Assembly: GCA_964652365.1 (NCBI GenBank)
Contig: CAZZCT010000003.1
Span: forward strand, 158 to 64,157
Source: an uncultured Lentisphaerales bacterium
Lineage (GTDB): Bacteria > Verrucomicrobiota > Kiritimatiellia > RFP12 > CAZZCT01
DNA: 64,000 nucleotides
Reading direction: 5' to 3'
Below the pieces are notes generated by a model that saw nothing but the letters and a program-made list of their open reading frames with translations, was not told the DNA's origin and searched no databases. Positions 58 to 42,284 of the stretch are shown here, piece after piece; position 1 is the first letter of the stretch; each line of letters begins with the position of its first letter. The position numbers and the translations under genes are program-made.

Positions 58-108
58 CACGCGCGGTCCTATCATCAAAATGGGCTGGATGTCCGGAACC
101 CAATCTCA

Positions 109-180
109 TCTCTCACAGAGATCCCAGAGTGGCACGGAGGTTTATACAAATCTCTGTGAACTCTGTGCCTCTGTGAGAGA
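109..180. repeat. 12-bp perfect inverted repeat (TCTCTCACAGAG 109-120 / CTCTGTGAGAGA 169-180) enclosing three direct CTCTGTG copies (152-158, 161-167, 169-175)
   Basis: Read directly from the sequence. It sits in the non-coding region about 110-180 nt upstream of the ATG at 290. One CACAGAG segment can pair with any of the three CTCTGTG copies. Confidence 0.6.
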
Positions 181-289
181 CCAACAACGTGCTGCGTGTT
201 GGCCTTGTCGGCAGGTAAGGCACTGATTGGGTTGGCCGTCTCATCGGGTGTCGCGCGTCGCGTCAGAGACCCTCGCAGGGGATTGCGAT

Positions 290-4162: not shown

Positions 4163-4496
4163 TCTGCCTCTGCGCCTCCGCGCCGCTGCGGGAGTCATCG
4201 CTTCTCCGGCACTAACGGCAACGCTCTGGTAGAGGCACGCCGTGCCGATTGCCAGAAGTGTCTTGTTGGGGCAATCATGTTAAGGTCGACATTCGGCTCT
4301 TCCGGGGACGTCCACCTTTCAATCCGTTTGAGGCGCTGTAGACATACGGGTTGTCCTGCTGGTGCAAGAAGGCTAACCTATTCGATTAGGTTTCTCGAGT
4401 GCCTGATTCTCTCTGCTCGGCATAACAGGAGCGCGATTGGCGCGTCGGCGCAAACCGTGTCAGATGCAACGTACATGGCCTAAGCCCGACAGGCTC

Positions 4497-5627
4497 CTAG
4501 ATCCACTCGCACAGGCGCCAGTTGGCGCGTGTCATGAGGCGCATAAGAGCGCGCCGCGTCTCCTCGTCGAACGTGCCCGCCGCGCAGCAGAGGGTCACGG
4601 TGCAACGCGCGCGGGCGCGGGTGCGACGGCGATCCTCCAGGTAGGAGCGCAGGGCTGCCGCGAGGCTCTCGGGCGAACCGTGGTAGACCACGGCATAACG
4701 ATTGAACCAGGCGGCGTCGAACAGGAACTCCCAACCGCGCGAATCGCCCTCCCGCAGCACGAGTTTGGGGACCATCCAAGCCGTCAACCGCGGCAGGCGT
4801 AGATGGCCGATCCGCAGCGGCGGCAGTTCCAGCCGCGGCAGGGCGTCGCTGACCGGCAAGGGATCATCCGGGGCGATGGCGAGGAATGTCTCGCCTCGAC
4901 GCACCAGGTCGCGCAGGAGGCGGGCCGAGTTGGCGCCCGGCCAGGTGCAGGTGTAGGACTTGGTCGAGAAATCGTCCAGCCAGGGAGCTGAGACCGGCAG
5001 GGGCGGGTAGCCGGGCATCCAGCGGTTGAACCGGATCAGGTAGTCCCAGAGCAACAGGATCAACCCGGCCCAGAAGACCAGGCGCGCAGCTCTCAGGTTG
5101 TGACGGTCCAGGGTGTTGGCCCGGTTGGCGTCCAGTTCCTTCAGCATCTTGGGCGGCTTCTCGGTGGCCTCGACAACGGCCGAGGCGTCGCCGACCTTCT
5201 CCTTGCGATCCGCGGCGCGCTGCTGCTTGCCGCGCGTACGATAGGCTGGTTCGGCCTCTCCCAGGCCACCTTCCGCCGCCATCAACCCATTGGTGGGGGC
5301 GGTCTCGTCAGTCGGCGCGTCCTCGGCAAAGTGCATCTGGGCGGCGAGATTGCTCTCGCCGCTGGCGTCCACGCGCATCTCGCGCTGTTGGCGCCGGGCC
5401 TCCTCCATCTCCTCGGTACGGTCAACCCGGATCTCGCTGACGGCGGTCGAGTTGATGCGCGCCAGAACCAGGCCCACCAGGCCCAGGCCGAATGCCAGCA
5501 GGTAGCGCAGATTGCGCCGGCTATCGCGCCAATACACACCATACAGCACCGCGGCCGCCAGCCAGAAGAGGATGGACGCGATCCCGACAACCCCGAAGTA
5601 TGTGTAGAGCTTGAGCATGGGCGGCAT
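4497..5627 (-). CDS. Hypothetical membrane protein with two N-terminal TM helices, a charged coiled segment, a third TM helix and a C-terminal domain of unknown function. It is the last gene of the motor cluster.
   Basis: 376-aa ORF starting at ATG 5627. Hydrophobic helices are YTYFGVVGIASILFWLAAAVLYGV, LLAFGLGLVGLVLA and LVFWAGLILLLWDYLI. It lies 21 nt downstream of the preceding co-directional gene. Confidence 0.75.
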   Translation of the reverse strand: MPPMLKLYTYFGVVGIASILFWLAAAVLYGVYWRDSRRNLRYLLAFGLGLVGLVLARINSTAVSEIRVDRTEEMEEARRQQREMRVDASGESNLAAQMHFAEDAPTDETAPTNGLMAAEGGLGEAEPAYRTRGKQQRAADRKEKVGDASAVVEATEKPPKMLKELDANRANTLDRHNLRAARLVFWAGLILLLWDYLIRFNRWMPGYPPLPVSAPWLDDFSTKSYTCTWPGANSARLLRDLVRRGETFLAIAPDDPLPVSDALPRLELPPLRIGHLRLPRLTAWMVPKLVLREGDSRGWEFLFDAAWFNRYAVVYHGSPESLAAALRSYLEDRRRTRARARCTVTLCCAAGTFDEETRRALMRLMTRANWRLCEWI

Positions 5628-5648
5628 CCGGCAACGGAGACCAGGCGG

Positions 5649-7214
5649 CTACTTGCGATGCTTCCGAGTCATCTCCAGGTAGTGGGTGAAGGAGTAGTGA
5701 ATGATGTTGATGCCCAGATCCATGGCGCTCTGGCTCAGTTCCGGGGCCATTCCGCCGCGGTCGTTCTTCCACGTGTCGTTCATGTCGCCGGGGTGGTAGA
5801 AGACCACCCAGCGGTCCTTGTGCTTGATACCCATGGCCCGCCAGCCGCCATGATGCCACAGCGGCGGCGCACCGTTGGGGAAGACATAGGGTTGCTGGAA
5901 GAGCGGATCGTCATCGGCAATCTCGCGCATGGGATTACCCGGGAAGAGCGACTGCGCCAGTGAGCGGAAGTTCCGGTCAAACCACGGGCTGCCCGCATCC
6001 GCGAAGAGCAGCCCGCCGTCCAGCAGATAGGCGCGCAGGATCTCGATGTCGCGGGCCGAGATGCGGATGTCGCCATCGCCGGTCAGATAGACGAAGGGTG
6101 GCGCAAACCCCTTGGGATAGTTTTTGAGCACGCGCACGGGGTGGCTCTCACCGCGCGGCGCGACCTTAAAGCCGGTGACGCGCTTGAACTCCTGCAGGAA
6201 ATTGATGTCGGCGCGCGACTTGGCATCCATGCCGTCGTCCCACTGCGGACCGCCATGCTCCAGCCGGATGAAGCGCACGACGGCGTTCTCCATGCCGTCC
6301 GGCCATCCGCCCTTGCTGCCCTTGCCCACGCCCAGCTTGCCCTTGTGCACGCGGGTTGGATCCGCCGCGTACTCGACCTGGCTCTGTTTGTCGACCTCCC
6401 GCATCAGCTTCATGTCATCCGGCAGGTGGAAGATGATGGCCGAGTTCGGATTCACGACATAGCGCTTCTGGGGCTTCTTCTTGCGTACGACCTTGACGAC
6501 GCGCTCGATCACCGGCTCGCCTTCGCCCTTGGGAATCCGGTAGGGATCGACGCAGCCGCGCATCGAAAGCAGCCAGGGCAGCAGCACGATCACGAACAGG
6601 TGGAGGCTGACGCTGTGGTAGAGGCTCTTACGGTAGGATGGCGCCAGGCGATGCAACCGCAATGCCTCGATCAGGCGGTCGCCCATCGAAGGCTGTGTCG
6701 GCGCCGAACCGGTATAGACCTCGATCGTCGCGTTACACCAGGTGATGACCTGCACACCCATGGCCAACACAACCGCAACCAGCGCGGGCCAGAGGTAATG
6801 GAGCCGACAGAAGAAGATGTTCCAACTGTCGGGCTTCTGTCCCAAGAGCGGAATGTTCGCGGATGCCAGCGCGCTGGTCGCCTGGAAGACGGCCAGCAGC
6901 TCGACGGCCAGCAGAACTCCGATCAGCAGGCAGCCCTTGCGCACGACGCCCAGACTCCAGCCGCGATGGAGCGTCAGTCCCAGCAGGAACGCCGTCAAGA
7001 GCAGCAGGGCGCCGCCGACGGCGGACCAGAAGAACAGTTCAACCGTGACACCCACGCCCTCCGCAGCAAAGACGGCGCCGTACGCCGGGTAGGCGACAAG
7101 GAGGCCCTCATACCATTCCGGCAATAGGCGCACCACCCACGCCAGGCCGGCGGCGATCAGACCGAGTGGCGTGGCGATTGCGAGCGGGAGCCAGGATTTT
7201 GGCAGGATCCGCAT
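5649..7214 (-). CDS. Polytopic membrane protein with a C-terminal DUF4159 domain
   Basis: 521-aa ORF starting at ATG 7214, 3 nt after the upstream stop. The N-terminal ~200 aa hold about 5 TM helices. The C-terminus matches my recollection of DUF4159 (PF13709): PFVYLTGDGDIRISARDIEILRAYLLDGGLLFADAGSPWFDRNFR...DDDPLFQQPY...RWVVFYHPGDMNDTWKN. Confidence 0.8.
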   Translation of the reverse strand: MRILPKSWLPLAIATPLGLIAAGLAWVVRLLPEWYEGLLVAYPAYGAVFAAEGVGVTVELFFWSAVGGALLLLTAFLLGLTLHRGWSLGVVRKGCLLIGVLLAVELLAVFQATSALASANIPLLGQKPDSWNIFFCRLHYLWPALVAVVLAMGVQVITWCNATIEVYTGSAPTQPSMGDRLIEALRLHRLAPSYRKSLYHSVSLHLFVIVLLPWLLSMRGCVDPYRIPKGEGEPVIERVVKVVRKKKPQKRYVVNPNSAIIFHLPDDMKLMREVDKQSQVEYAADPTRVHKGKLGVGKGSKGGWPDGMENAVVRFIRLEHGGPQWDDGMDAKSRADINFLQEFKRVTGFKVAPRGESHPVRVLKNYPKGFAPPFVYLTGDGDIRISARDIEILRAYLLDGGLLFADAGSPWFDRNFRSLAQSLFPGNPMREIADDDPLFQQPYVFPNGAPPLWHHGGWRAMGIKHKDRWVVFYHPGDMNDTWKNDRGGMAPELSQSAMDLGINIIHYSFTHYLEMTRKHRK

Positions 7215-7217
7215 GCG

Positions 7218-7640
7218 TTAGCGTACTTTGGTGTCTTCCAGCGAGATGCCGAGATCGCCGGGTTGCGCCGGGATATCCTCGGGCTTGGCGGCGTCGGTGA
7301 TACGTTTGACGACCGGCGCGCCAGAGCGCTGCTCCAGAACCTGCGCGTCGGTCGGCTCCTGGTCGCCCGCGGTCGCGTTGGTCGTGCCGGTGCCGGCCGT
7401 GGAGGCCGTGGCGTTAGGTTCGCCGGACGCCGGCGCGGCAGCCTCTGCGGAGGCCTCCGCCGCAGCCGGAGCAGCCGGAGCGGCATTGCGCTTGACCAGC
7501 GAACCCAACGACAGCAAGACGACCGCAATCGCATGCACGACCGTGGCCAGTACAACCCATTTGATGAACCCGCCGCGGGTGAAGGCCGTCAGCAACTGAT
7601 CCGAGTTGAGATCGGAAACCGCTTCCTGTTGTTCTGTCAT
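7218..7640 (-). CDS. Small bitopic protein with one TM helix followed by an Ala/Pro/Thr-rich low-complexity linker. It sits in the TonB/TolA position but has no recognisable TonB C-terminal domain.
   Basis: The track ORF 7218..7649 starts at a GTG. I prefer ATG 7640 because AAGGAG (reverse complement of 7649-7654) lies 8 nt upstream of it. TM helix: FIKWVVLATVVHAIAVVLLSLGSL. Linker: AAPAAPAAAEASAEAAAPASGEP. The gene directly follows exbB-exbD-exbD. Confidence 0.7.
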   Translation of the reverse strand: MTEQQEAVSDLNSDQLLTAFTRGGFIKWVVLATVVHAIAVVLLSLGSLVKRNAAPAAPAAAEASAEAAAPASGEPNATASTAGTGTTNATAGDQEPTDAQVLEQRSGAPVVKRITDAAKPEDIPAQPGDLGISLEDTKVR

Positions 7641-7679
7641 GGCAACCACTCCTTGATTTCAGTCTTCGCCCGGCAGCAC

Positions 7680-8120
7680 CTAGGGTGCCGCCGGTGACGG
7701 CACGTGGGGAGCCTGCATCCCCTTGTCTCCCACGGCCACAATCGTTCCACCGGCCTTGGCGATCGCATCGATCACCGGCTCGAAAAAGGTCTTGTCCACG
7801 TCCTTGTCGCACCGCAAGACCACCAGCCGGGCATCGGGGCCGGTCTTACCGGTCAGCAGCAGGGTGATTCCAGGCTCCAGTTCCACGATGTCGATCCGCC
7901 TTCCCTGCAGGAAGACGTCGCCCTTGTCATCGACGATCACCGACACACGCCCCTCTTTGACCCCTTTGACGTCGGCGCTCCGCGGCGAGGTGTACTTGAT
8001 TCCCGATTCCTTGATGAAGTTGCTGCACAGGATGAAAAAGATCGTCAGCAGGAATGCGATATCACCCATGCTCACAATTGGAACGGCAACTTCCTTCTTG
8101 CGGCGGCGCGGCATCTTCAT
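7680..8120 (-). CDS. exbD: ExbD/TolR-family biopolymer transport protein (second copy)
   Basis: 146 aa. The N-terminal TM helix carries the conserved Asp (SMGDIAFLLTIFFILCSNF). Its ATG overlaps the upstream stop as ATGA at 8117-8120. Confidence 0.9.
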   Translation of the reverse strand: MKMPRRRKKEVAVPIVSMGDIAFLLTIFFILCSNFIKESGIKYTSPRSADVKGVKEGRVSVIVDDKGDVFLQGRRIDIVELEPGITLLLTGKTGPDARLVVLRCDKDVDKTFFEPVIDAIAKAGGTIVAVGDKGMQAPHVPSPAAP

Positions 8121-8542
8121 TTGGCGCCCCCCTCGTCGGTCATGATGCCGACCACCCCGCCGGCACCGCTGATGGCCGCCATGGTCTCGTAGTAGTTCTG
8201 GTACTTGACGCCCTTGGCGGCATCCAGCACGATCACGCGCTTGTCTTCAGGCTTGCTGGGAAGCTTGAGTACCAGCAGGGCCGCACGCAGCCCCGCCATG
8301 TCCATGGGCTGGTCGTTGAAGCTCAGACCGTTATCGTGCAGCTTGATGGTCGGAGTCTTCTCCTCCTGCTGCTGCTGTTGCTGCTGCGCGGCCGGTATAT
8401 CGGTCTCGAAGCCGGTCAGTTTGCGGATCGACGTCGTCAGGATGAAGAAAATGATCAGCAAGAAGGCGATGTCCGACACCGAATCGGTGGGGACGGTCGG
8501 CTGCTCCTTGCTCTTCTTTCTCTTACCCAGTGACACGGGCAT
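8117..8542 (-). CDS. exbD: ExbD/TolR-family biopolymer transport protein (first copy) with a poly-Gln insert
   Basis: 141 aa. The TM helix carries the conserved Asp (SVSDIAFLLIIFFILTTSI). An AAQQQQQQQEEK tract is encoded by the (CTG)n run at 8366-8386. Confidence 0.9.
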   Translation of the reverse strand: MPVSLGKRKKSKEQPTVPTDSVSDIAFLLIIFFILTTSIRKLTGFETDIPAAQQQQQQQEEKTPTIKLHDNGLSFNDQPMDMAGLRAALLVLKLPSKPEDKRVIVLDAAKGVKYQNYYETMAAISGAGGVVGIMTDEGGAK

Positions 8543-8570
8543 CTCTCCGACTGCAGTGTTAAGTTCCGGC

Positions 8571-9221
8571 TCAGGCGCGCCGCGATGAACGCAGGGTCAC
8601 GAAATCGAGCAGTTCGACGCCCGCCTCGTGAATCTCCTCCTCGACCTTCTCGGCGCGGCCGGTGAAGTAGTGGAAGGGGATCACGGCACCCATCGCGATC
8701 AGCAAGCCGGCCGCAGTGGTGATCAGGGCTTCCGAGATGCCGGATGCGACGGCCGCACCCTCGAGCGCGCCGGCCTTGCCCATCGACTCAAACGACCGGA
8801 TCATGCCGGTGACCGTACCGGTCATGCCGAAGAGCGGCGCCGAGTTGCCGATGAACGAAAGCACATTCAGGCGCTTCTCAACTGCCTTGGTGGCGATGTA
8901 AGTGTAATCCTCAATCGCATCCTCGACCAGTGAGCGCAGCGACTCCGGCGTGCTGGCCATGGCCCGGTGCTTCTCGTAGGCCTGCACACCAGACAGCAAC
9001 ACAGCCGAGACCGGGCCCGGCGTGCCGACGCACAGGCGGCATGCCTCCTCAATCCGGTCTTCGCGCAGCAGGCGCATGACCTTAGCGCGCAGCGAGCGCA
9101 CATCCACGCGGTCGTTCTCCCGGAAGGCCTTCCAGCGGTCGAACAGGACCGCCAGCGCCAGCACGCTCTCAATCATCAGCGGAATCATCAACATGCCGCC
9201 CTTGATCAGGATCTCAAGCAT
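8571..9221 (-). CDS. exbB: MotA/TolQ/ExbB-family proton channel
   Basis: 216 aa with 3 TM helices. Family signature: NSAPLFGMTGTVTGMIRSF...ISEALITTAAGLLIAMGAVIPFHYF. AAGGAGAG lies upstream of the ATG at 9221. Confidence 0.92.
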   Translation of the reverse strand: MLEILIKGGMLMIPLMIESVLALAVLFDRWKAFRENDRVDVRSLRAKVMRLLREDRIEEACRLCVGTPGPVSAVLLSGVQAYEKHRAMASTPESLRSLVEDAIEDYTYIATKAVEKRLNVLSFIGNSAPLFGMTGTVTGMIRSFESMGKAGALEGAAVASGISEALITTAAGLLIAMGAVIPFHYFTGRAEKVEEEIHEAGVELLDFVTLRSSRRA

Positions 9222-9242
9222 TGTGCACTCTCCTTGCTTCTT

Positions 9243-9662
9243 CTAAACCGAACCCGGCCGGCCGCCGCGCAAGCGAACGGCCAAATCCTCACCCTCGACC
9301 GGCGGCAGGGCCACCTGCGTAACCCGCGCCTCCGGCGCGGGAGCCAGCGTCAACTCGCCGGTCACGGCATTGTAGACGCTGTCGCGCAACACGCCCAACT
9401 CCAGCCGCTGCCGGAGCGGGCTCCGGCCGGCGGCGCAGACCAGCAACGCGTCGTCGCACAGCCCCACCCAGACACGGCTGTCGTGGAACCACTGCCCGAC
9501 GTCGACGCGTGTGGCGGTACAGCGCTGCCAGGACAGCTGGCGGTCCCCCGCCAGTTGCCCGAGCAGCGTCCGGCCCGCGGCCGTCGACCACGACAACCGC
9601 AACCAGCGCATCGCAACCCAGCCCGCCAGGCGGCGGGCGATGGTCTGGATCTTCGCTGCCAT
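9243..9662 (-). CDS. Hypothetical 139-aa soluble Trp/Arg-rich protein with no recognisable domain, wedged between the giant TPR gene and exbB
   Basis: This is the in-frame ATG at 9662 within track ORF 9243..10196. The rest of that ORF overlaps the giant gene. It begins 2 nt after the giant gene's TGA (9665-9667) and ends 21 nt before the exbB ATG. Confidence 0.6.
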   Translation of the reverse strand: MAAKIQTIARRLAGWVAMRWLRLSWSTAAGRTLLGQLAGDRQLSWQRCTATRVDVGQWFHDSRVWVGLCDDALLVCAAGRSPLRQRLELGVLRDSVYNAVTGELTLAPAPEARVTQVALPPVEGEDLAVRLRGGRPGSV

Positions 9663-9664
9663 AC

Positions 9665-12600
9665 TCAGGTGCCTGCATCCTCCGACTCGATCTTGGCCAG
9701 CGCCTCTTCCGAGAGGCGACCGCGCGCATACTTGGCCCAGATCGACTCCGGATAGTCCCAGGTCAGCTTCTTGAACATTCGGTAGGCGGCCACCAGTTCC
9801 TTGGATTTCATGTGACTGTCGCCACACCAGTACATGGACTGGGCAATCAGATCCGCCTCGGCCTTGGGCGTCGCGATCACGCGTTTGAACGTGGCCACGG
9901 CCTTGGGATAGTCCTCGGCGCGGATATAGCACTGACCCGACAGCACGAGCGTCTTCCAGGCCAGGGGATGATCCGGGAACCGTTCCGAGAGGCGCCCGAA
10001 GACCTGCGCCGCCGTCGTCGCCGTGGCCCGCGCCTGCGTCAGGAGCTTCTCGCGCTCGATCAGGTCCGCCTGGGCCTTGGCCTTCTCCACCAGCTCCCGG
10101 TTCTTGACCGTGAAGTAGTTGCCCAGACGGGCGATGGTCTCCGCCACCAGTTCGTTGTCCGGATAGCGATAGGAGAGCTTGACGTACTCCTCGCACGCCA
10201 GATCGATCTCACCCATCTTCTCAAAGGCCAGGGCCTTCTTGAACTGCGACTTGGGCGCGTAGGCGCCTTCCGGGAAGTTGGCCACGATCTCGGTGAAGCG
10301 GCCGACCGCCTCGCGGTAGTGGCGCTGCTTGGCATCCGGCTCCGTCGTCTCGTCGGCAAACTGCATGGAGAGCTCTGCCAGCAGGTAGTCAGCGTGGGCA
10401 CGGGCTTCGGACTTGGGCGAGTCGCGCAGCGACTCCTCCAGCAGCTTGCGTCCCTGCGAGATCTCCTTGCGCGCCAGCTCCTTCTGTCCCAGCTCGCGAT
10501 GCTTCTTAGCCATCTCGAAATAGGCCTCGGCCGTGGTGAACTGGGTTTGGATCGCAATCTCGGGATCGCGGAACTGTTTGGTGAACGGCGCGATCTGACC
10601 GTCGGCACCCTTGTGCACCTGCACCACGAAGGCCAGGACAGCCGGTTCACGGCCGGTCGCGTACTCAAAGGTCAGCCGCTCGCCATAGCCGACCGCCAGA
10701 GCTCCGGCCGCCGGGACACTGCCCGGATCGCCCCCGAACGCCAGCGTGACGGCGCCCTTAAAGACACCCGAGTGGCCGAACGTCTCGGAGAGCTTGACCT
10801 GCCGGGGCCCGCCCGACAGACCGGTGACGTTGAGCGTAACCTCTTCCTTCTCATCCGTGGTGTCCAGCACGTGATCGATGACGCGCGGAAAGATCAGCTC
10901 GCCGACGTGCACCGCCGCGACCTCGGTCTCGTAACGGCGCTCCATGACATGCAACCATGGGTCGCTCGCGAGGGCGACCGTGCGGGTCTGCCAGCGTACG
11001 GCTCCATTGGGCCCGGTGTGCTTGAGACCGATGTAGACGGTGTCGTTACCTGCCACCGCCAGGAACAGCGGCTCCTCGTCTTCGACCACCCGGCGCTGGG
11101 TTCCTTCGGCTTTGGATGCGGCCGCGCGTTTCTCGGCTTCCACCGCCAGGCTCTTCTCGGGCAGGGCTGCCAGTTCCATCGGGAGCACGAATGAGAAGCG
11201 TCCGTCGTCCAGGGCCGCATTGGCATACCGATTGCCGTCGATGGTCACCGCGCGGTAGCCGACCGGTGGCTGGATGTTCGGCAGATTGCCGGGACGCGCC
11301 ACGAGGCGCACGGTGCCGGGAACCGTGATGTCGAACGGCGCCGCTTCCCCGTCGACAGCGGCCGCGGGCGCGGCACCGCCAACACGGGCGCGACCGCGCG
11401 CGGTCTGGACATAGAGCACCGCCTCACTCTCAACGGAGAGCGCCGCAGCCGGATGGAGCAGCTCAACCATGAGCGGCGCGACCACCAGGGTTGTAGAGAC
11501 ATTGTCGGCCTGGGCGTCGGCCGGCCGGTAGGCCACGATCGTCCGGGCCACGGCCACCTGTTCATCACGCATGCGGGCCGTGCGCGTGATCTTGACCGGC
11601 GTGGCAAGTTCCTGCTCTGTCAGCGGCCGCGAACGGGCACTGTAGACGCGCATCTCGGCATCGCCCGAGCCGGTCTGCTCCAGCAGCGCGCGGCGCTCCC
11701 AGGGAATGCCCGGATTCGTGTTCTCGCGGTCGACATAGGCAATGACCGCGTCATCGCCCGGCCCCACGCGGAACTCGGTCGGCCGCTGCGGCTGGCCGGC
11801 AACCGGGAAGACCCGCGCCGTGAAGATGCCGGAGTGGGCTTCGGTCTCGAGCGCCGGAACCTGGATCGCACTGCCGTCCGCGGACATCACGGAGACCGTC
11901 ACCTGGTCCGGTTTCTCGCTCACGTCCATGTCGGGATCGTTCACAAACACGGTCAGGGCGTCCCCCACGCGGAAGCGCCGCATCGGAATATAGACTGCCT
12001 CGCGTGTTCCGTCCCCGGCCAAAACCGACTCGATAAAGCAGGCCTCGACCTGCGCATCATTGAAGGTGGCGCTCATGGACGCCTCGCTTACGGCCTTCTT
12101 GGGATCGACCGGCACCGGGTCCTCGTAGGCGATCGTGATGCGGTCGCCGGGCACGATCTCCAAGGTACGGTTGCGGCGCAGGCTGACGATGTCCACGGCC
12201 GGCGGCAGGATCTTGGCGCCCTCGGCCGAGTCGAGCGTGATGCTGCGGACCGCCGGGGCCTGGCCTTCGAAATCAGCCATCACCAACCGCAGGGTGCGGG
12301 CCTTGGTGGCAGGCGGGAAAGTCGCCGTGAAGACGGACTGCGCCGCGTCGACAGCGATGGCCGCCGGGACGAACAGCGGCCCGCGCTCGCCCTCCGGGAA
12401 GCGCGACGGATCGAAGAGCTGGGCCGAGCACGGCGTCAGTTCCGGCGGCTTCTCGACATCCGACATGAGCGTCCATACGGGCTTGGCCTTGCGCTGCGCT
12501 GCGAAGCAGAACTCGACCCGGTGCACGCCCTTGGGAAGGGATCCACGGAACACACCGCTCTTCGGATCCACAGGCACCCCGTCGACGGTCAGGTACGCCG

Positions 12601-17665: not shown

Positions 17666-17739
17666 TGCACCTCCCTAAGGACTGACGGGTCAAAACCTAA
17701 ATCGGCTGCCGGGGCTGCGCCACCTTCATCGGTCCACTG

Positions 17740-20022
17740 CTATTCCTTCTTGAGGCGAGCCTCAATGCGGGGCAGGATCTCCTTGACCTTCTCTGCGTAC
17801 GGGCTGGCCGGATACTCGAAGAGCAGTTGGCTGGCCTTGTCGTATGCCTTCTGGAAATCGGCCCCGCGATAGGCCACCAGCACCCACTTCAGCAGCATGG
17901 CGTCGAGGAAGGCGGCGTCGGGATAGTCCTGGAAGATCTGCTGCAGCAGTTCGTTGGCCTGGCTGTAGTCCTTCATGTCGATGTGGTAGTCGATCACCTT
18001 GGCCAGGGCCTGACCGGCAAACTCGCTTTCGGGATAGCGCTCGGCGCACTGCTTGTAGGTCTGGATGGCAGGCTCGATCGCGGAGAGCTTGTTCACGTTG
18101 TCGCTCTGCGCGATGCGCAGCATGGCCATGGCCTCAATGCACTCGGCGATCCGGAACTGGGCCTCGGCCTTGGCCATCGACTTCTGCAGCGCCAGAACCT
18201 GATTGAAGACGCCGATGGCCTCCTGGTGCTCCTTCTTCTCCATGCGGATGCTGGCGATACCCATCAGGGCCTGATCCACAAAGGGCGAATCCGGGTACAG
18301 CGAGTTGAACAGCCGACAGGCCGCCATGGCGCTGCCGAAATCGTCGGTCACCAGATGCAGCTCCCACTTGAGCTTGAAGGCCTCCTGGCGCACTTCGGCC
18401 GGAATCGGCAGCGCCGTGCGCACCACGGCGTCCACGCGGTCAAGGCCCTCCTTCACCTTCTCCTTTGCGCCGCTCATGAGCCCCATGCTGCGGAAAATGC
18501 GGCCCAGCTCCAGATAGGCCGTGGCCTCGACCAACCCCTTGCGGGCGCGCACGACGGCGTCAGCCACCACGTCCTGGGTGGCACGCGGCCGCGTGTCGAT
18601 CGCGCCGGAGGTGCGAATCAGATTCTCGACCAGGCGCGGATCGGACCCGCCAATGTGAACCTCGTCGACAAAGGTCAGCACAATCTCGTCATCCACCGCC
18701 GCGCTCAGTTGAAGGTCAGTGCGCTCGACCGGCGTGCCCTCGACCAGTCCGACGACCTTGACCGAGCCGCCGAAGCGACCGCTGCGCACGATGGCATTGG
18801 TGCCGATCTCAGACAACGGCAGCGTCACCTCGTCGCGGACCGTGAAGCGCTGCTGCTGCTCTTCCAGCAGCTTGGACAGGTCTACGGTGTTGCCCAGCGG
18901 CTCGTCTTCGTCCTCGGCCTTGTAGCGCGAGACAATCCGCACGTGCACCGCATCGGCCTTGTCGGTCTTGTCGGCATCCGCATCCTGCACCAGCACGAAC
19001 AGCGGCTGATCAAGGAAAGCCGCGGTGGCTTCCGTCTCGTAGTCGCCCAGCGTGAAGGTCGCCGCCGCAGTCGAAACCACCTTGACCGTGGCTTCCTTGG
19101 CTACGTTGACCGTGCCATCCTGCACCGTGGCGTCAATGTAGATGGTCTTGACCGTGTCGCCGCCGGTGACTTCGAGCACGCCGTTGCCGGGCCGCGGCAT
19201 GCCAATTTCGGTTGGCACAGAGCCGATGAACACATCGGCACCGCTGGTCAGCGGGATGCACTCGATGGTCTCCTTGTCGCCGCGCGAGCTCTCGACCGAC
19301 ACCTTGATCTGCTTGCCCAGGTTGTAAAGAATCGGCAGGTCGGCGTCCTGCGTCTTGACATAGAAGCGCCGGCCCGCTTCGGCGAACTGCGTCTGCGGGC
19401 TGTCCGCATCAATGAAGGTGCCCACCATGCTGAGCGCCTCGATGGCGCGGCTCCAGTTGCCTTGCGCAAAGTGGCACATGCCGATGTAGTAGTACGACTG
19501 GTTGGCCCACACGGTGTTCGGGTACTGCGTGGTGATGCGCCGCAGGATCGGAAACGCGGCGCCATATTGCCGCATGTTGAAATAGGCGGTGCCCATCAGG
19601 TAGAGCGACTCCAGCAGCATCTCGCGGTCGTCGCCCGCCAGCTCCTTGTCCGGCTGGTCGATCGCCTTGACCAGGTTCAGATAGGAGATCGCCTTGGGCT
19701 GATCGCTCTTCTCAATGTGGTACTTGCCCAGTTCGATCGCCGCCTGAAATCGTACACGACTGGCCGGGAACTGCTCGATCACGTTCTCGAGCATGCGAAC
19801 CCCGCGCTCCTCATCCTGGGCTGCCAGCAGTTCACGCGCCTTGTTCAGCAGCCGGCTGGCCTCGAACTCGCTCGAATCCAGTCCCTCGCCCTCCTCGCCA
19901 TTGCCGCCTTCGCCACGACCGCTGCGGGGCTGCCGTGCCGCCTGCACGCCGGTCGCCACCACCAGCCAGAGCACCAGGCCCAGACGGGCCGTCTGCCATC
20001 CGAAACGCACTCGATTCTTCAT
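17740..20022 (-). CDS. Secreted TPR-repeat protein (761 aa) with BamD/YbgF-like TPRs flanking the same beta-sandwich module type as the giant protein
   Basis: Track ORF 17740..20121. The internal ATG at 20022 gives the signal peptide MKNRVRFGWQTARLGLVLWLVVATGVQAA. TPR motifs: QYPNTVWANQSYYYIGMCHFAQGNW, LYPDSPFVDQALMGIA, RYPESEFAGQALAKV, EYPASPYAEKVKE. Confidence 0.88.
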   Translation of the reverse strand: MKNRVRFGWQTARLGLVLWLVVATGVQAARQPRSGRGEGGNGEEGEGLDSSEFEASRLLNKARELLAAQDEERGVRMLENVIEQFPASRVRFQAAIELGKYHIEKSDQPKAISYLNLVKAIDQPDKELAGDDREMLLESLYLMGTAYFNMRQYGAAFPILRRITTQYPNTVWANQSYYYIGMCHFAQGNWSRAIEALSMVGTFIDADSPQTQFAEAGRRFYVKTQDADLPILYNLGKQIKVSVESSRGDKETIECIPLTSGADVFIGSVPTEIGMPRPGNGVLEVTGGDTVKTIYIDATVQDGTVNVAKEATVKVVSTAAATFTLGDYETEATAAFLDQPLFVLVQDADADKTDKADAVHVRIVSRYKAEDEDEPLGNTVDLSKLLEEQQQRFTVRDEVTLPLSEIGTNAIVRSGRFGGSVKVVGLVEGTPVERTDLQLSAAVDDEIVLTFVDEVHIGGSDPRLVENLIRTSGAIDTRPRATQDVVADAVVRARKGLVEATAYLELGRIFRSMGLMSGAKEKVKEGLDRVDAVVRTALPIPAEVRQEAFKLKWELHLVTDDFGSAMAACRLFNSLYPDSPFVDQALMGIASIRMEKKEHQEAIGVFNQVLALQKSMAKAEAQFRIAECIEAMAMLRIAQSDNVNKLSAIEPAIQTYKQCAERYPESEFAGQALAKVIDYHIDMKDYSQANELLQQIFQDYPDAAFLDAMLLKWVLVAYRGADFQKAYDKASQLLFEYPASPYAEKVKEILPRIEARLKKE

Positions 20023-20422
20023 CGTCTCGCGTCCTCTCCAAGTCCGCCACTGACCAATACTTGCGCGTCCAAGAAAACAATCACACCACCCAGCCCGGCC
20101 GAAGCTAGGCACGCCACCCAATGGCAGTTGTGGCTTTTAAGCAGGAAGCATGCCGACGCCGCGAGCGCGTCAAACCCGGCGCAAACGGCCTGTCACCCGG
20201 CCGCCCGCCAGGCGTCCCCGGATGGGCCCGCCCGCCCCAACTGCCTACATCACAACGCACCCTGCCGCCCGGATGCCACGTGCCGCACTGGCCCAAGGAA
20301 CCTGTCGGGCTTAAGCCCCGGACGTTGCCAGCCCCGTACCGACAGGCTCCCAAGTCCGACACGCGGCCAGCTGGCAGCCGGCCGGAACAACCGCCACGCG
20401 CTTCGATCGTGTCACGGCCTTT

Positions 20423-22093
20423 CTAATGTGTCATGGCATAGACGAGCAAGTTGAGTCCAAGCTCGGCACCGGACGGGGCCTCGTAGGCGCGTGCCAGCGG
20501 AAACTCGCATCCCTGCCAGGCGCAGGCCACGTCGACCGGGCTGTAGATCACCCGCAGGTCGCCGTCGATCGAGATGGCCTCGATCTGGGGCGTGGTCACG
20601 CCAGGACGCGCCTGCAATGCCGCCGGCGAGTACTGGATCGCGCCCATCGGGCGAACCGTGGCGAACAGGGCGTGGTCAGGCGCCACGGCGGCCAGTTCGC
20701 GGTCCGGCAGCAGCCGCCGCAGTTCCCGCCGCACCGCCTGGTCGAAGGTTCCCAGGCCAAGTCCGTTGTTGATCAGCAAGGTGCCGCCGCGTTCGAGGAA
20801 GGCGCGCAGGGCTCGCAGGGCCGGATCACTCCAGCTGAACTCATCAAGTCCCTCCAGATAGAGAAACGGCAGCGCGCCGAGATCATCGCGCGCAGGGTCC
20901 ACGCTGATGCGTTTGAGGCTGACGCCCACGGCGGTCTCGCGCCGCATCTGCCGCAGCAGCGCCGCCGCCGCGCCGGGATGCACATTCCAGGCGCCGTCGT
21001 GCCGGATCTGGGCAAAGACCAGTTCGTCGGTCGGGCGCTGCTCATCGAGCGCACCGAAGAGTTCGGGGCGCGCCTCCTGGCGCCCGGTCTCGGCATACCC
21101 GATCGCGTAGGCAACCAGATTGATCCCCAGGCGCGTGGCCGAGTCATTATCGTAGAAGACGGCCTTGTCAAGCAGGGGCACATCATGGTCGTCCCAACCG
21201 CAGCCGAGACCATACTGCGAGATCAGACAGGCGATCCGGCTGCCGACATAGATTCCTTCCATAAAGGGCCGCTGGCTGTCGAGATTGCGCGGGTAGGCCA
21301 CGGTCGTGGCGTCGGCCAGCATGTGGAAGAGCGGGTGATCAAGCGGGATGGCCCGGATGCGCTCGCCCGGCACGATCTGCACGGCGAGTTCGCGGGCCGA
21401 GGCGTGAAAGTACGGCGACCCCGCGATCGAGTCGAAAACCACCATGCCACCGCGTCCGACGAAGGTGCGGACAATGGCCAACTGTTCGTCCGTCAGCCGG
21501 ATGCGCCGAACGCCGCTGAAGAACAGAACCGGTGTGGTGGCCGGGTCCGGATCGAGCGTGTTCAGGGAGACCGGCTGGGTTCCATAGTTCAACGCGAACC
21601 AGCGACCTGCCTTGCGCATGAGCTGCGAGAGGTCGTCGGGACAGAGGTTCCAGTCGGCAATCTGCGTGGTCTGGCCTTCGGCATAGCGGTACTCGGCCGT
21701 CTCACCCCAGACAACCTTGCCGACCAGCTGCGGCGGCCGGGGTTCGCGCTTGCGTTCGGTGCGCCGGATCGGCGTGGCGGGCAGGGGCAGCGGCGGCACG
21801 CCTTCGCCTCCCGAGATACGTTTGGGGGCGGCCCGCGGCGGCTGTCCCAGCGGCACCAACCACTCGTTCTCGTCCGCCCGGCCGAGGCCCGGCGCGACGC
21901 ATCCCACGACCAGAGCCAAGCCGGCGGCCGCGGCCAGCAACCGGGGTCGGCCCCGCTGCCAGTGGCCTTCCGTCCTGTGTCTTCCGACCTCTGACCTCTG
22001 GCCTCCGACCTCCGACCTCCGACCTCTAGCATCCAACCTCGGACCTCTCTCGGTCGGACCGGCATCGGGCCGTGCGATTGGCATAGTGCTCAT
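20423..22093 (-). CDS. Tandem-DUF4159 protein, probably a lipoprotein, with an Arg-rich N-terminal extension
   Basis: 556 aa. The ATG at 22093 overlaps the upstream stop as ATGA at 22090-22093. Lipobox-like LALVVGC. Two DUF4159-like units: PVLFFSGVRRIRLTDEQLAIVRTFVGRGGMVVFDSIAGSPYF...LDHPLFHM and LPFLYLEGLDEFSWSDPALRALRAFLERGGTLLINN...PDHALFATV...YSPVDVACAW. Confidence 0.85.
   Translation of the reverse strand: MSTMPIARPDAGPTERGPRLDARGRRSEVGGQRSEVGRHRTEGHWQRGRPRLLAAAAGLALVVGCVAPGLGRADENEWLVPLGQPPRAAPKRISGGEGVPPLPLPATPIRRTERKREPRPPQLVGKVVWGETAEYRYAEGQTTQIADWNLCPDDLSQLMRKAGRWFALNYGTQPVSLNTLDPDPATTPVLFFSGVRRIRLTDEQLAIVRTFVGRGGMVVFDSIAGSPYFHASARELAVQIVPGERIRAIPLDHPLFHMLADATTVAYPRNLDSQRPFMEGIYVGSRIACLISQYGLGCGWDDHDVPLLDKAVFYDNDSATRLGINLVAYAIGYAETGRQEARPELFGALDEQRPTDELVFAQIRHDGAWNVHPGAAAALLRQMRRETAVGVSLKRISVDPARDDLGALPFLYLEGLDEFSWSDPALRALRAFLERGGTLLINNGLGLGTFDQAVRRELRRLLPDRELAAVAPDHALFATVRPMGAIQYSPAALQARPGVTTPQIEAISIDGDLRVIYSPVDVACAWQGCEFPLARAYEAPSGAELGLNLLVYAMTH
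21986..22048. repeat. Heptanucleotide tandem repeat GACCTCY (coding strand RGAGGTC). Six near-perfect consecutive units at 21986-22027, then three degenerate units.
   Basis: Read directly: gacctct gacctct ggcctcc gacctcc gacctcc gacctct agcatcc aacctcg gacctct. The repeat lies in codons ~16-36 of CDS 20423..22093 and encodes RSEVGGQRSEVGR. Confidence 0.9.
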
Positions 22094-24231
22094 CGTGATC
22101 CTTTCCCGTTGCCGGGCTCGGCAGCGGAACCGAAACGATCGCGGGCCACGGCAGCGGCTTCGCTGTAGGGATACGAACGATTCAACTCCTCAAGGGCCTG
22201 CCGGCTCTCACTCCCCGCGCCCTGCTCCTGGCAGACTTCAGCCGTCACCCGAAGCAGTTCGGCACGCTGCGGGTCGTCCGGTGCCGCCTGCAGCAAGCGC
22301 AGGCAGGCCGTCCGCGCAAAGGGCGCTTCGCCGCGCCCGCGGAAGGCTGCCACCAGAATCAGGCCCGTTTCCAGCTCGAGCCGTTCGAGCGGCCGTTCCC
22401 ACTCGATCTCGCGCGCGACCCGTTCGGCCGCATCATAGTCCTTTTGCCGCAGATAGACACGCGCGTTTTCAAGTCGGGCCAGACGCCGCACCTGGTAGGT
22501 CGTGTCGTCGGGCGCCACGACTGTTCCGGCCTGACGGTACAGGACCGCCGCCGCCTCGCGCTCGCAGCGCATCACCTGGATGTCGGCCAGATAGATCAGC
22601 CGCAGCCGGCCGTCGGTCTCGTCCAGCGTCGCCGCCGCCAGTTCATCCAGGAGGCGGCCGGCCGCGGCCAGATCCTGCCCGCTGTGAATCAGAAACCCGG
22701 CCAGGTGCAGCCGGACGCGCGCAGCCGTTGGCGCCGGCACGCCCGGCGCGGCCAGCGCGGCCTGCCAGAACTCCGGCACCCAGCCGTACTGCCGCTGGGT
22801 CGGGTGCTGGGCGAAGAAGCCCAGGCGCAACAGGCCCTCGGCCGCCACGCCGCCGAACTCGCTCCGCCTGGCGCGGCAGATCCCGGCCAGTTCCGCCAGC
22901 AGGTCGCGATCCTCGATCTGATCCGCCAGCACAACCAAACGCGCCAGGTCCGCGGCCGGCAGGCGGTCGAAACCGGTCTGCCGCAGCGCACCGCACAACC
23001 GCACGTAGGCCGCCTCCGGAAACTCGGACGCCTGCTGCCACTGCCGGTGGATGGCCACCTGGCGGGTCAGCGTGCCGCGCGCGCGTCCGTCGCGCACGAC
23101 TTCCAGACGGACCTCGTGTTGCCCACCGACAGTGTATACATGAACCACCTCGGTGCCCGTGGCCGTGCTGCCGTCGTCGAACCGCCAGCGGCAGGTGTCG
23201 CCGGCGGCGGCCGGCAGCGCCCACAGGCGCACGCCGATCAGCTCCGATGCTCCGGCCGCCGCATGCTCGACAATCTCCCAGCTGAAGGCCGCCGGCGCCT
23301 CGGGTCCGCCGACGGCAGCGACGGCCTCGAACGGGGCCGGCGCTCGGTAGGCCGTGGGGGGAATGATCGCGAACCGGTCGACCCCGGGCGGTTGCCAGGC
23401 CGCGGCCACGTGGAAACCGCCGTCGTTCTGGCAGTTGTGGTACGTGATGCGATGGGGACCGCGCCGGAGTTCCACGAAGCCCTGATACTCGCCTCGCAGC
23501 CCACTACCGTCCAACCCGTGCCAACCGGGCCACGCCGCCACCGGCCGGCCGTCGATCAGCAAGAACGAGGCGTCGTCCGAAAGGGTCGCGAAACCGTAAC
23601 GGCCGTCGCGCGGGATGTCGAGCCAGCCCTCATAGCGTGCCATGAGCGGCACATGGGGGCCATGTGGGTGCACCCCCTGGTTGATGGCATCGACGCGCGA
23701 CCGCCCGAACTTCGGACGCCCAACGCGCCACAACTCGAGCGCTTGTGCCAGGGTGTCGACCGCGCCCGGCGACGGCGGCAGGGCGCGCGTCTCCAGCACC
23801 AGCCCGGCAGTCGCGCGCCAGGTCGGTTCGACTGGCGCCGTGGCGGCCGGGGCAATCCGCACCGTGTAGTTGGAGGCGCCGGCGCGACAGTCGAACAGCA
23901 GGTCCAGCGGACCATCGGTCAGCCATTCCACGACCTCGAAGCCGACGGCTCCTCCGGCCGCGTCCAGCACGTGCAACGCCGCGCCGTCGGGAGTCGCGTT
24001 CCACGGCCACAGCCGCACCGCCCCGACCCCCACCTCCGCCGGTCGCGCACCACTTGCCGGCCGGATCGTGAACGAGCTGTCGGCATCGGCCCGGCTGTAG
24101 CCGCTGATCAGGAGGGCAGCCAGCCCGGCCGCGGCCAGGCACCGGGCACGCGCGCGCGCTCCGGCTGACAACCGGCCGGAACTGTGGGCCGACACGCTGC
24201 CGGGAGGGTTCGTCACAGTCCATCCACCCAT
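22090..24231 (-). CDS. Secreted PA14 + PKD domain protein with a C-terminal TPR-like helical region
   Basis: Track ORF 22090..24372. The likely start is ATG 24231, or GTG 24216, which overlaps the upstream stop as GTGA. Hydrophobic N-terminus: CLAAAGLAALLISG. PA14-like: YEGWLDIPRDGRYGFATLSDDASFLLIDGRPV. PKD-like: CRWRFDDGSTATGTEVVHVYTVGGQHEVRLEV. Confidence 0.8.
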   Translation of the reverse strand: MGGWTVTNPPGSVSAHSSGRLSAGARARARCLAAAGLAALLISGYSRADADSSFTIRPASGARPAEVGVGAVRLWPWNATPDGAALHVLDAAGGAVGFEVVEWLTDGPLDLLFDCRAGASNYTVRIAPAATAPVEPTWRATAGLVLETRALPPSPGAVDTLAQALELWRVGRPKFGRSRVDAINQGVHPHGPHVPLMARYEGWLDIPRDGRYGFATLSDDASFLLIDGRPVAAWPGWHGLDGSGLRGEYQGFVELRRGPHRITYHNCQNDGGFHVAAAWQPPGVDRFAIIPPTAYRAPAPFEAVAAVGGPEAPAAFSWEIVEHAAAGASELIGVRLWALPAAAGDTCRWRFDDGSTATGTEVVHVYTVGGQHEVRLEVVRDGRARGTLTRQVAIHRQWQQASEFPEAAYVRLCGALRQTGFDRLPAADLARLVVLADQIEDRDLLAELAGICRARRSEFGGVAAEGLLRLGFFAQHPTQRQYGWVPEFWQAALAAPGVPAPTAARVRLHLAGFLIHSGQDLAAAGRLLDELAAATLDETDGRLRLIYLADIQVMRCEREAAAVLYRQAGTVVAPDDTTYQVRRLARLENARVYLRQKDYDAAERVAREIEWERPLERLELETGLILVAAFRGRGEAPFARTACLRLLQAAPDDPQRAELLRVTAEVCQEQGAGSESRQALEELNRSYPYSEAAAVARDRFGSAAEPGNGKGSR

Positions 24232-25325
24232 CGCTGGAGCCCGTCCTGCTGCGCTTCGAGGTCGCACACCAGTGCCAGCTGGTTGCGGCACCGGTCCAGG
24301 TTGTGCCCCGGCCGCCGGACGCGGAAATAGATGTCCCCTTGCAGAAAATCGGTCAGAAAACGCAGGCCGCATTCGAGCGTCATCAATAGACTGCTGAAGA
24401 CCAGATTGTCGCGCTCGGCCGGCACCAGAAAATCGGCGGTCTCCAGATAGCCGCGCGCAAGGGCCTCGAAGATCTCGCGCCGGCAGCGCACGTGGCTGCG
24501 ATCGGGGTCGTCCTCGGCGGCGCTGTTGGTGGCGGACCGCACCATGTCGCCAAAGTCATACAGCGCCAGTCCCGGCATGACCGTGTCGAGATCGATCACG
24601 CAGATTCCCTCTCCGGAACGGTCGTCGATCATGACGTTGTTGAGCTTGGTGTCGTTGTGGGTGACACGCTCGGGCATCGCGCCGGCCGCCTGCAGATCGA
24701 CGAGGCGACGGCACGCGGTCGCGCGGGCGCGGATGAAATCGAGCTCGGACGCGACCGCCGAGCGGCGGCCGCAGACATCGGCTTGCGCCGCCGCCTCGAG
24801 GGCCGCCACGCGGCGCGGCGTATCGTGAAAGTGAGGAATGGTCTCGAACAGGCGTCCTCCCGGCAGGTCGGCCAGCAGGCGCTGAAACTGCGCAAACGCG
24901 CGCGCGGCCTCGTAGGCCTGCCGCGGTTGCTCGATCCGGTCGTACGTGCACGCCCCGTCGATGAAGAGATAGGCCCGCCACAACCCGCCCGACGCGTCGC
25001 GATGGCTGAGCTCCCCGCGCACGGTCGGAACCAGGGTCAGCGTCCGGCGTGTGATTTCGGCATGGCCGGCCGCGACGAGCCGCGCACGGGCATGGGCGGT
25101 CACGCGGGCCACGTTCTGCATGAGGGCGTCGCCGTCGGCGAAAACGCGCGTGTTCACCCGTTGCAGGATGTAGCTGACAGGTGTGCCGGCCTGGTCGACG
25201 CACACGCGGAAAGTCTCGTTGATGTGTCCGGAACCATACGGCCCACCCTGGCGGAAGTCGCCCCGCAGGTCGAAGGCCGCACACGCCGCACGCAGTTCCT
25301 GTTCAGTCACGACGGTCAACTCCAC
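24213..25325 (-). CDS. Aminoglycoside-phosphotransferase-fold anomeric sugar kinase (NahK / N-acetylhexosamine-1-kinase-like)
   Basis: Motifs GPYGSGHINETFRV and VTHNDTKLNNVMIDD...VIDLDTV. There is no in-frame ATG after the upstream gene, so the start is GTG 25325 or TTG 25319 (a TTGA overlap with the upstream stop). The 5' part of track ORF 24213..25580 overlaps the nucleotidyltransferase gene. Confidence 0.75.
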   Translation of the reverse strand: MELTVVTEQELRAACAAFDLRGDFRQGGPYGSGHINETFRVCVDQAGTPVSYILQRVNTRVFADGDALMQNVARVTAHARARLVAAGHAEITRRTLTLVPTVRGELSHRDASGGLWRAYLFIDGACTYDRIEQPRQAYEAARAFAQFQRLLADLPGGRLFETIPHFHDTPRRVAALEAAAQADVCGRRSAVASELDFIRARATACRRLVDLQAAGAMPERVTHNDTKLNNVMIDDRSGEGICVIDLDTVMPGLALYDFGDMVRSATNSAAEDDPDRSHVRCRREIFEALARGYLETADFLVPAERDNLVFSSLLMTLECGLRFLTDFLQGDIYFRVRRPGHNLDRCRNQLALVCDLEAQQDGLQRWVDGL

Positions 25326-42275: not shown

Positions 42276-42284
42276 GGTGGTTCC

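Follow-up and report, generated by a model that had tools for sequence, protein, structure and literature searches.

The window analysed here, a stretch of 64,000 nt from the genome of an uncultured Lentisphaerales bacterium (contig CAZZCT010000003.1), contains a minus-strand gene cluster built around an ExbB/TolQ-type proton motor. We conclude, at a probability of roughly 0.6, that the genes at 4497–20022 form a conserved nine-gene operon of the Planctomycetota–Verrucomicrobiota–Chlamydiota (PVC) superphylum, found in Kiritimatiellia and their relatives, which serves force transduction of the Tol/Ton type with non-canonical transducers. A preliminary description of the window had suggested that eleven genes could form one uncharacterised machine; synteny across related loci upholds a conserved gene set for the nine-gene core and dissolves the eleven-gene unit. 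In the literature we found no characterisation of the nine-gene operon, DUF4159 was named only in the Pfam database paper, and no paper joined Kiritimatiellaeota with ExbB. Positions throughout are those of the whole window, and the labels L001, L004–L006, L007 (JBMNHG010000008.1) and L044 denote related loci. The G+C content of the window is 64–70%, and its proteins are nearest to those of Kiritimatiellia and other PVC-group metagenome-assembled genomes (MAGs).

The cluster comprises eleven minus-strand open reading frames (ORFs), each with a single stop. Neighbouring genes overlap by 4 nt (ATGA) at 8117–8120 and 22090–22093 and are otherwise 2–74 nt apart, except for one 400-nt gap (Table 1), which is exactly the tight co-directional spacing first described. 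Two protein lengths had to be revised, from 761 to 760 aa for the smaller TPR (tetratricopeptide repeat) protein and from 140 to 143 aa for the bitopic Ala/Pro-rich protein. A Pfam search of each protein, proposed in the preliminary description as a check, matched MotA_ExbB, ExbD (twice), DUF4159 (three times), PKD and TPR families, with PA14 borderline.

Relatives of the 521-aa DUF4159 membrane protein occur in 203 GTDB species, all represented by PVC-type MAGs. One genome was taken per GTDB species, and the best 80 of the 203 species loci were searched by tblastn with the window proteins; counts for each gene take in only the loci long enough to hold it. ExbB (63/63 loci), ExbD paralogue 1 (65/65) and ExbD paralogue 2 (69/69) were present throughout, 57 of 59 species loci had a giant TPR gene on the upstream side of ExbB, the 139-aa protein was encoded in 58 of 61, and the 376-aa protein followed the DUF4159 gene in 69 of 72. 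The slot of the 143-aa protein was filled in all 71 loci, 53 times by a tblastn match and 18 times by an ORF with an H-x7-S helix recognised on inspection, tblastn having missed the protein there because it is short and of low complexity. The order of genes was the same on three unrelated contigs (L004–L006) at about 50% identity: TPR protein, giant TPR protein, small protein, ExbB, ExbD, ExbD, a protein of about 140–160 aa, DUF4159 membrane protein and a protein of 330–414 aa. The co-occurrence of DUF4159, ExbB with two ExbD and a giant TPR protein, on which the proposal of a distinct machine had been made to depend, is therefore found across species. No canonical TonB or TolA C-terminal domain accompanied by receptors came to light for the core, nor, by the features compared, did the core prove orthologous to a characterised Tol-Pal, Agl-Glt or Bacteroidota TonB operon.

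In motors of this kind, an ExbB or TolQ pentamer encloses an ExbD or TolR dimer, the helix of TonB or TolA binds the periphery of the pentamer through a conserved His, and proton flow through an Asp is converted into force on a periplasmic linker. The general features of a Ton/Tol-type motor, the channel Thr/Glu of the MotA/ExbB family and the Asp of ExbD/TolR, are present by Pfam matches above cut-off and by alignment, as the preliminary description had recognised in one MotA/ExbB channel and two ExbD/TolR proteins with the conserved membrane Asp. ExbB retains the channel Thr/Glu/Thr equivalent to T148/E176/T181 of ExbB when aligned with E. coli TolQ and ExbB, and both ExbD copies retain the membrane Asp, aligned with D23 of TolR and D25 of ExbD of E. 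coli. The NCBIfam tolQ model scores ExbB higher than the exbB model does (100 versus 68 bits), both under cut-off (221 for tolQ); tolR scores 33.7 bits against a cut-off of 127, and ExbD1 fits the TolR model better than the ExbD model. Because the two ExbD paralogues are 27% identical to each other, their sequences suggest that they form a heterodimer. Just past the membrane helix of ExbD1, its periplasmic linker contains seven consecutive glutamines (QQQQQQQ), which the L004 orthologue lacks.

The 143-aa protein has a cytoplasmic N-terminus and, by hydropathy, one membrane helix, in which His39 and Ser47 are invariant across the family alignment. A conserved cytoplasmic (S/A)PxxLLxxF segment stands ahead of the helix, an Ala/Pro/Thr linker comes after it, and the protein ends in a conserved peptide of about 35 residues (PVVKxITExAKPxEIPxxPDDLGISIEDTN), in which I126-P127 is invariant. 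In most orthologues the helix is followed by a YIRDxWIDPEGA segment. The reference helices of E. coli contain S16-H20-L27-S31 in TonB and S18-H22-L29-S33 in TolA; of this S-x3-H-x6-L-x3-S motif, the 143-aa helix carries the invariant His and the Leu at +7. In ExbBD-TonB and TolQRA structures, the conserved His of the transducer helix is the contact with the motor (PMC12204202). Neither the 143-aa protein nor its L004 orthologue matched a TonB_C/TolA domain, or indeed any Pfam family, even at E≤0.5, so the initial description of a linker protein devoid of a TonB C-terminal domain stands.

The DUF4159 protein consists of five hydrophobic helices (hydropathy), a Lys-rich linker and a C-terminal DUF4159 domain. 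Four residues of helix 5, S201, H205, P213 and L215, are invariant in the family alignment, and S201-x3-H205-x6-L212 reproduces the S-x3-H-x6-L pattern of E. coli TonB and TolA. Since the 143-aa and 521-aa proteins each possess an invariant membrane-helix His of the TonB/TolA type, we regard both proteins as candidates for the role of force transducer. By the positive-inside rule, the C-terminus of the 521-aa protein lies outside, so that its DUF4159 domain is predicted to be periplasmic, in agreement with the export of the tandem-DUF4159 protein encoded nearby. The position of the glutamine amidotransferase (GATase) nucleophile is occupied by Cys in the family consensus and by Ala in the window protein; because it is unconserved, the domain looks non-catalytic. 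In the AlphaFold2 (AF2) model, whose predicted local distance difference test score (pLDDT) is 66, helices 1–4 form a confident bundle, while helix 5 (pLDDT 48–61) and the DUF4159 domain are less confident. The sole significant structural match of the model is PDB 4i66 (Hoch_4089), the title of which states no function. An invariant Gly-Cys at residues 220–221 lies two residues past helix 5; with Arg at −2 it is no lipobox.

The 139-aa protein had been regarded as an orphan and is instead the member of a conserved family, as its recurrence across loci demonstrates. The family has a core of about 90 aa (TRVDVGxW...YNxVTGELVLAP) with G56, W58, A77, G79, N98 and E103 invariant in the alignment, and the ORF was independently called as a 139-aa gene on another assembly; profile, PDB sequence and Pfam searches with the family returned nothing. 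The family of the 376-aa protein counts 363 representatives among 1.84 billion proteins. Hydropathy gives the window member three membrane helices, two of them N-terminal and the third past a charged, partly disordered loop of about 120 aa, which is presumably periplasmic. Its C-terminal domain is of the alpha/beta type (AF2 pLDDT 69.5). Neither Pfam nor NCBIfam matched the protein, and the structure search gave no significant fold, the best hit being SulA (RecA-like) at E 0.1. Long homologues (600–1364 aa; P0254–P0392) end in zinc-ribbon repeats, and one has a PA14 domain; because of these zinc ribbons, we place the C-terminus in the cytoplasm. In L007 the 376-aa homologue is 968 aa long, and genes for PlsY, GpsA and a 742-aa GATase1_like/DUF4350 protein are present at the downstream end.

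The two secreted TPR proteins share a C-terminal TPR region that resembles CpoB/YbgF and BamD. The start codon of the 760-aa gene is the ATG at 20022; its product opens with a signal-peptide-like stretch and has N-terminal TPRs and a beta-rich centre. The NCBIfam tol_pal_ybgF model scores its C-terminus at 75.3 bits against a cut-off of 90.1, BamD cross-matches are equally strong, and a PDB sequence search retrieved only designed or generic TPRs. In L004, a 731-aa TPR homologue lies immediately upstream of the giant TPR gene, and the 760-aa gene is probably the first gene of the core operon; its conservation is weakly documented, as the 10-kb flanks of the other loci stop inside the giant gene and the placement rests on L004. 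The 2666-aa protein has about 1150 N-terminal residues without a family match, TPRs near residue 1200 and a beta-rich middle, where a single weak F5/8-type-C match falls below threshold; it had no sequence relative in the PDB search. Its homologues in L004–L006 are 2484–2724 aa long. L007 (positions 1–19000) is a variant with MoxR and GH106-like genes upstream in place of the giant TPR gene. A 2046-aa ORF of this locus, considered as a divergent giant scaffold, was rejected as a spurious high-GC frame, the real genes being the GH106-like gene and a minus-strand gene.

We hypothesize that an ExbB pentamer with an ExbD/ExbD' heterodimer would turn proton flow into rotation or pulling. The His helices of the 143-aa and DUF4159 proteins would dock at the edge of the pentamer in the manner of TonB and TolA, and force would pass through the periplasmic linkers to the C-terminal peptide of the former and the non-catalytic DUF4159 domain of the latter. 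Peptide and domain would in turn engage the two secreted TPR/beta-sandwich scaffolds, which have CpoB/BamD-like C-termini. From the cytoplasm, the motor would be acted upon by the 139-aa protein and by the C-terminal domain of the 376-aa protein. Here we observe the motor components and their conservation and infer docking, force transmission and TPR contacts. Generalised, the scheme describes a third, PVC-wide class beside Tol and Ton, in which a TolQ-(TolR/TolR') motor drives two transducers without a TonB/TolA C-terminal domain, one ending in a short peptide and the other in a non-catalytic GATase1-like DUF4159 domain, both of which pull on giant periplasmic TPR scaffolds under the control of cytoplasmic accessory proteins. 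We advance this class tentatively and at somewhat less than even odds. If it is real, it could replace TolA/TonB in Kiritimatiellota-type bacteria where neither is identifiable, and may cooperate with an envelope module of MoxR, vWA, BatA and DUF4159 proteins to which it is repeatedly, if loosely, linked.

Several observations weigh against the transducer assignments and the operon as a force-transducing unit. Whereas TonB and TolA have a single helix, the DUF4159 protein has five and carries its His in the last; in the 143-aa helix, position His−4 is Ala instead of Ser, and the Ser stands at +8 instead of +11. The 143-aa protein of the window and its homologue in L007 (9524–9994) lack the YIRDxWIDPEGA segment; to judge from the alignment, this lineage may have lost a segment that possibly contacts the motor. 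The AF2 models reach only moderate pLDDT values, 66 for the DUF4159 protein and 70 for the 376-aa protein, and L007, the nearest well-assembled relative, has no giant TPR gene adjacent to the core. The contact between transducers and TPR proteins is purely inferential. Finally, the conserved set has no gene for an outer-membrane partner, and the envelope-spanning character first suggested for the machine is thus unproven.

The same genes could be read as the Tol motor of the lineage, in which ExbB and the two ExbDs take the roles of TolQ and TolR, the 143-aa protein serves as a minimal TolA and the 760-aa protein as a CpoB analogue; together they would energise an unlinked TolB-Pal pair for outer-membrane constriction and stability, with the extra genes as lineage-specific accessories. 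The preference of ExbB for the TolQ model and of ExbD1 for TolR agrees with this, as do the matches of the CpoB/YbgF model to the 760-aa protein and to the PA14 protein. Kiritimatiella glycovorans has tolB-pal and no annotatable TolA, a Lentisphaerae MAG is entered as 'tolQ-tolR-???, no TolA found', and in Tichowtungia aerotolerans (Kiritimatiellota) neither TolA nor TonB is discernible (PMC12204202 and its supplement). However, all scores remain below the equivalog cut-offs, TolA domain III is missing, and TolB or Pal is encoded in none of the related loci; the window's PD40 protein (227–4162) is convergent with the cluster and not conserved beside it. Moreover, the second TolR, the DUF4159 membrane protein and the 2666-aa and 376-aa proteins have no counterpart in Tol-Pal. 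We therefore consider a lineage-specific Tol motor unlikely.

The preliminary description suggested that all eleven genes could make up a single envelope-spanning machine, possibly one that handles surface glycans from the adjacent locus. The genes are indeed co-directional and tightly spaced in the window, DUF4159 is common to both parts, and the two modules adjoin in other arrangements elsewhere: L006 and L044 have MoxR-DUF58-BatA genes after the core, and L007 has a MoxR gene about 6 kb upstream. These arrangements hint at a loose functional link, which is possible. An SxxxH motor-binding helix was sought in the BatA/vWA and GATase1-like proteins of the MoxR module, and none was found. Comparative data speak for two units. 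A metagenome scan provided 80 further tandem-DUF4159 loci, from which those with enough sequence were counted: in 55 of 60, a MoxR gene is found no more than 2.5 kb downstream of the tandem-DUF4159 gene, and genes for DUF58, BatA/vWA, GATase1_like and a 354-aa protein usually come after it; 24 of 54 have a PA14 homologue upstream; and a TPR or ExbB homologue follows in 0 of 60. L001, for instance, encodes a PA14 protein and a tandem-DUF4159 homologue, then FHA-MoxR, DUF58/vWA, BatA/vWA and GATase1_like proteins, and in GCA_050950285.1 the tandem-DUF4159 gene and the core are on separate contigs. Among the five exceptions to the MoxR linkage are the four homologues closest to the window's copy, and therefore this clade detached the gene from MoxR; in the whole window there is no MoxR, DUF58 or BatA/vWA gene.

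Judged by gene orthology and not by local context, then, the tandem-DUF4159 gene is the displaced first gene of a MoxR-DUF58-BatA/vWA-GATase1_like operon, and the PA14 gene, on the same comparative grounds, belongs with the tandem-DUF4159 gene, upstream of which it is often found, rather than with the ExbBD core. The 400-nt gap likely divides two transcription units, because synteny breaks there in other genomes; it contains no sigma-70 or terminator consensus. The supposed partnership of the motor with three DUF4159 domains and carbohydrate-binding modules is accordingly, in large part, an accident of adjacency. As for surface glycans, the flanks differ in every related locus and glycan genes adjoin the cluster only here. 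An eleven-gene glycan machine is in our view very improbable.

Within this displaced pair, the PA14 protein (22090–24372) scores 33 bits with PKD_4, above cut-off, and 23.2 bits with PA14, just below the cut-off of 24. The tandem-DUF4159 protein was described as a lipoprotein; the window copy does have a lipobox, LVVGC, whose Cys is absent from the family consensus. The MoxR proteins of tandem-DUF4159 operons (e.g. L001 11647–13047) often have an N-terminal FHA/Yop-YscD_cpl domain, which suggests phospho-threonine-dependent control of the MoxR module.

A gliding or surface-adhesion motor analogous to AglRQS-Glt of Myxococcus would have the same stator of one TolQ-like and two TolR-like proteins and similarly TPR-rich partners, and a gliding role has been speculated upon for sister loci with vWA transducers (PMC12204202). 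Yet the conserved set is without TonB_C GltG/J-like proteins and without genes for an outer-membrane barrel or adhesin, and cultured K. glycovorans is reported to be non-motile (PMC5148204), which makes such a motor highly improbable. An ordinary Ton energiser of receptors encoded elsewhere, with an unrecognised TonB, is the most remote of the readings: the ExbB and ExbD Pfam families match and some Kiritimatiellota (Pontiella) encode PF00593 and PF03544 proteins (PMC10880615), but the cluster has no TonB_C, no receptor appears in the scanned window ORFs or among the Pfam-called genes of four related loci, genes for TonB-dependent uptake are reportedly missing from K. glycovorans (PMC5148204), and the conserved partners are unlike those of any Ton operon.

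Table 1. Features of the ExbB/ExbD cluster and the adjoining genes (positions in the window).
Feature	Positions	Strand	Basis
376-aa 3-helix membrane protein, last core gene	4497–5627	−	hydropathy, AF2, synteny
521-aa 5-helix inner-membrane DUF4159 protein, second candidate transducer	5649–7214	−	Pfam DUF4159, E 5e-32
143-aa single-helix candidate transducer	7218–7649	−	family alignment, hydropathy
ExbD/TolR paralogue 2, 146 aa	7680–8120	−	Pfam ExbD, E 7e-16
ExbD/TolR paralogue 1, 141 aa	8117–8542	−	Pfam ExbD, E 9e-20
TolQ-like ExbB/MotA-family channel subunit, 216 aa	8571–9221	−	Pfam MotA_ExbB, E 3e-26
139-aa protein, presumably cytoplasmic	9243–9662	−	no signal peptide, no membrane helix; conserved family
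2666-aa secreted TPR scaffold	9665–17665	−	Pfam TPR families; signal-peptide-like N-terminus
760-aa secreted TPR protein	17740–20022	−	Pfam TPR_6, TPR_16, YfiO; signal-peptide-like N-terminus
400-nt intergenic gap, likely transcription-unit boundary	20023–20422		synteny break elsewhere
Tandem-DUF4159 exported protein, outside core	20423–22093	−	Pfam, two DUF4159 stretches, E 2e-56
PA14-PKD-TPR protein, outside core	22090–24231	−	Pfam PKD_4 and PA14; start 24231 or 24372

The plus-strand gene at 227–4162 is convergent on the last cluster gene, and its 1311-aa product contains DUF11 repeats and PD40 repeats of the TolB propeller type; no homologue adjoins the cluster in 83 core-cluster loci, and the protein is probably unrelated to it. 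On the other side, the locus at 27170–62000 encodes a PseB-like Polysacc_synt_2 protein, two DegT aminotransferases, a GNAT protein, NeuB, GT2, GT4 and GT9 glycosyltransferases, methyltransferases, a PMT_2-like protein and a Calx-beta/InlB-repeat protein, a gene content which suggests that it makes a surface glycan containing nonulosonic acid. A strong AT skew of about 0.26 extends over 40000–44000, across two large minus-strand ORFs (39732–43796) without Pfam matches; the ORF at 39732–42275 encodes a polytopic membrane protein, possibly a glycan polymerase or transferase. In L004 (12628–20426), a DUF6785 protein and a 1730-aa protein with an FtsX domain are encoded after the cluster, which is not seen in other loci with downstream genes listed. 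Among window ORFs of at least 250 aa, none matched a TonB-dependent receptor, TonB_C, MoxR or BatA, as anticipated for the first two. A PADLOC scan with defence models gave a single marginal TPR match (E 9e-4) and no defence system, the Zorya type included, and Rfam had no match over 4–25 kb.

Proton-driven 5:2 motors (MotAB, ExbBD, TolQR, AglRQS, GldLM and ZorAB) are the main known means by which bacteria with two membranes deliver energy past the inner one, and each new set of partners has revealed a new process of the cell envelope. The nine-gene operon is conserved in at least 203 PVC lineages at species level; its carriers are mostly uncultured polysaccharide degraders of sediments, lakes and guts, some of whose relatives have no identifiable TonB or TolA, and the operon is a concrete candidate for energising the periplasm or outer membrane in these cells. 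It also provides the first genomic context for four families, namely DUF4159 with a membrane domain and the 139-aa, 143-aa and 376-aa proteins. For annotation, DUF4159 is to be placed in two distinct conserved operons, one linked to ExbBD and the other to MoxR/BatA.

We compared the operon with known systems that share its components. The cluster differs from a Ton system in having no TonB_C protein, and no TonB-dependent receptor was found among the Pfam-called genes of the four related loci that list them, nor in the window ORFs scanned. The exbB-exbD-exbD-tonB-TPR operons of Bacteroidota likewise have an ExbB-ExbD-ExbD series followed by a single-helix protein, together with a TPR protein; in contrast, no TonB_C follows the second ExbD here, the giant TPR genes are upstream, and the DUF4159 and 376-aa genes are added. 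The AglRQS-Glt/Nfs systems of Myxococcus xanthus have in common with the operon one TolQ-like and two TolR-like stator proteins and TPR-rich partners, whereas the cluster encodes no equivalents of the TonB_C proteins GltG/J, no outer-membrane Glt proteins and no outer-membrane barrel of any Pfam family. To our knowledge, going by what is established about the Glt machinery rather than by a comparison of sequences, it has neither DUF4159 nor 376-aa proteins.

Tol-Pal shares the TolQ-like channel, the TolR-like subunits with their Asp, a His-helix partner with an extended linker and a periplasmic TPR protein whose repeats are CpoB-like. In contrast to it, the operon has two TolR paralogues and extra conserved genes, its profile scores are under the equivalog cut-offs, the 143-aa protein contains no TolA domain III, and the cluster encodes no TolB or Pal. 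With the MoxR-DUF58-BatA/vWA operons (Bat, aerotolerance-type) the resemblance is indirect: the PA14 and tandem-DUF4159 genes of the window are homologous to the first genes of the PVC version, and the DUF4159 domain is shared with the core membrane protein, whereas the ExbBD core forms a conserved unit of its own.

The earlier claim of a partner set different from that of any known system thus holds, by the features compared, for Tol-Pal, Ton, Agl-Glt and the Bacteroidota operons, and has to be qualified by sister loci in the same superphylum. Comparative genomics and AF3 models have been reported for PVC loci of the type TPR-tolQ-tolR-tolR with non-TonB vWA transducers, including those of Kiritimatiellota, with Tichowtungia aerotolerans as an example (PMC12204202, Mol Biol Evol 2025). 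These loci likewise line up a TPR gene with a single TolQ-like and two distinct TolR-like genes, followed by genes for two inner-membrane proteins that have a His helix of the TonB/TolA type and a C-terminus that is neither TonB nor TolA. However, the transducers of these loci are about 475 aa long, with one membrane helix and a C-terminal vWA domain, whereas the operon described here has the peptide-ended 143-aa protein and the five-helix DUF4159 protein in their place, and adds the 2666-aa scaffold, the cytoplasmic 139-aa protein and the 376-aa protein. When the Tichowtungia transducer was searched by tblastn against the window and 166 related loci, nothing matched at E≤1, and Pfam detected no VWA domain in the cluster proteins; the operon is therefore a sister design and not the same system. 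Its motor chemistry is familiar and a sister system is published; its novelty lies in the partner set, the breadth of its conservation and the absence of canonical transducers.

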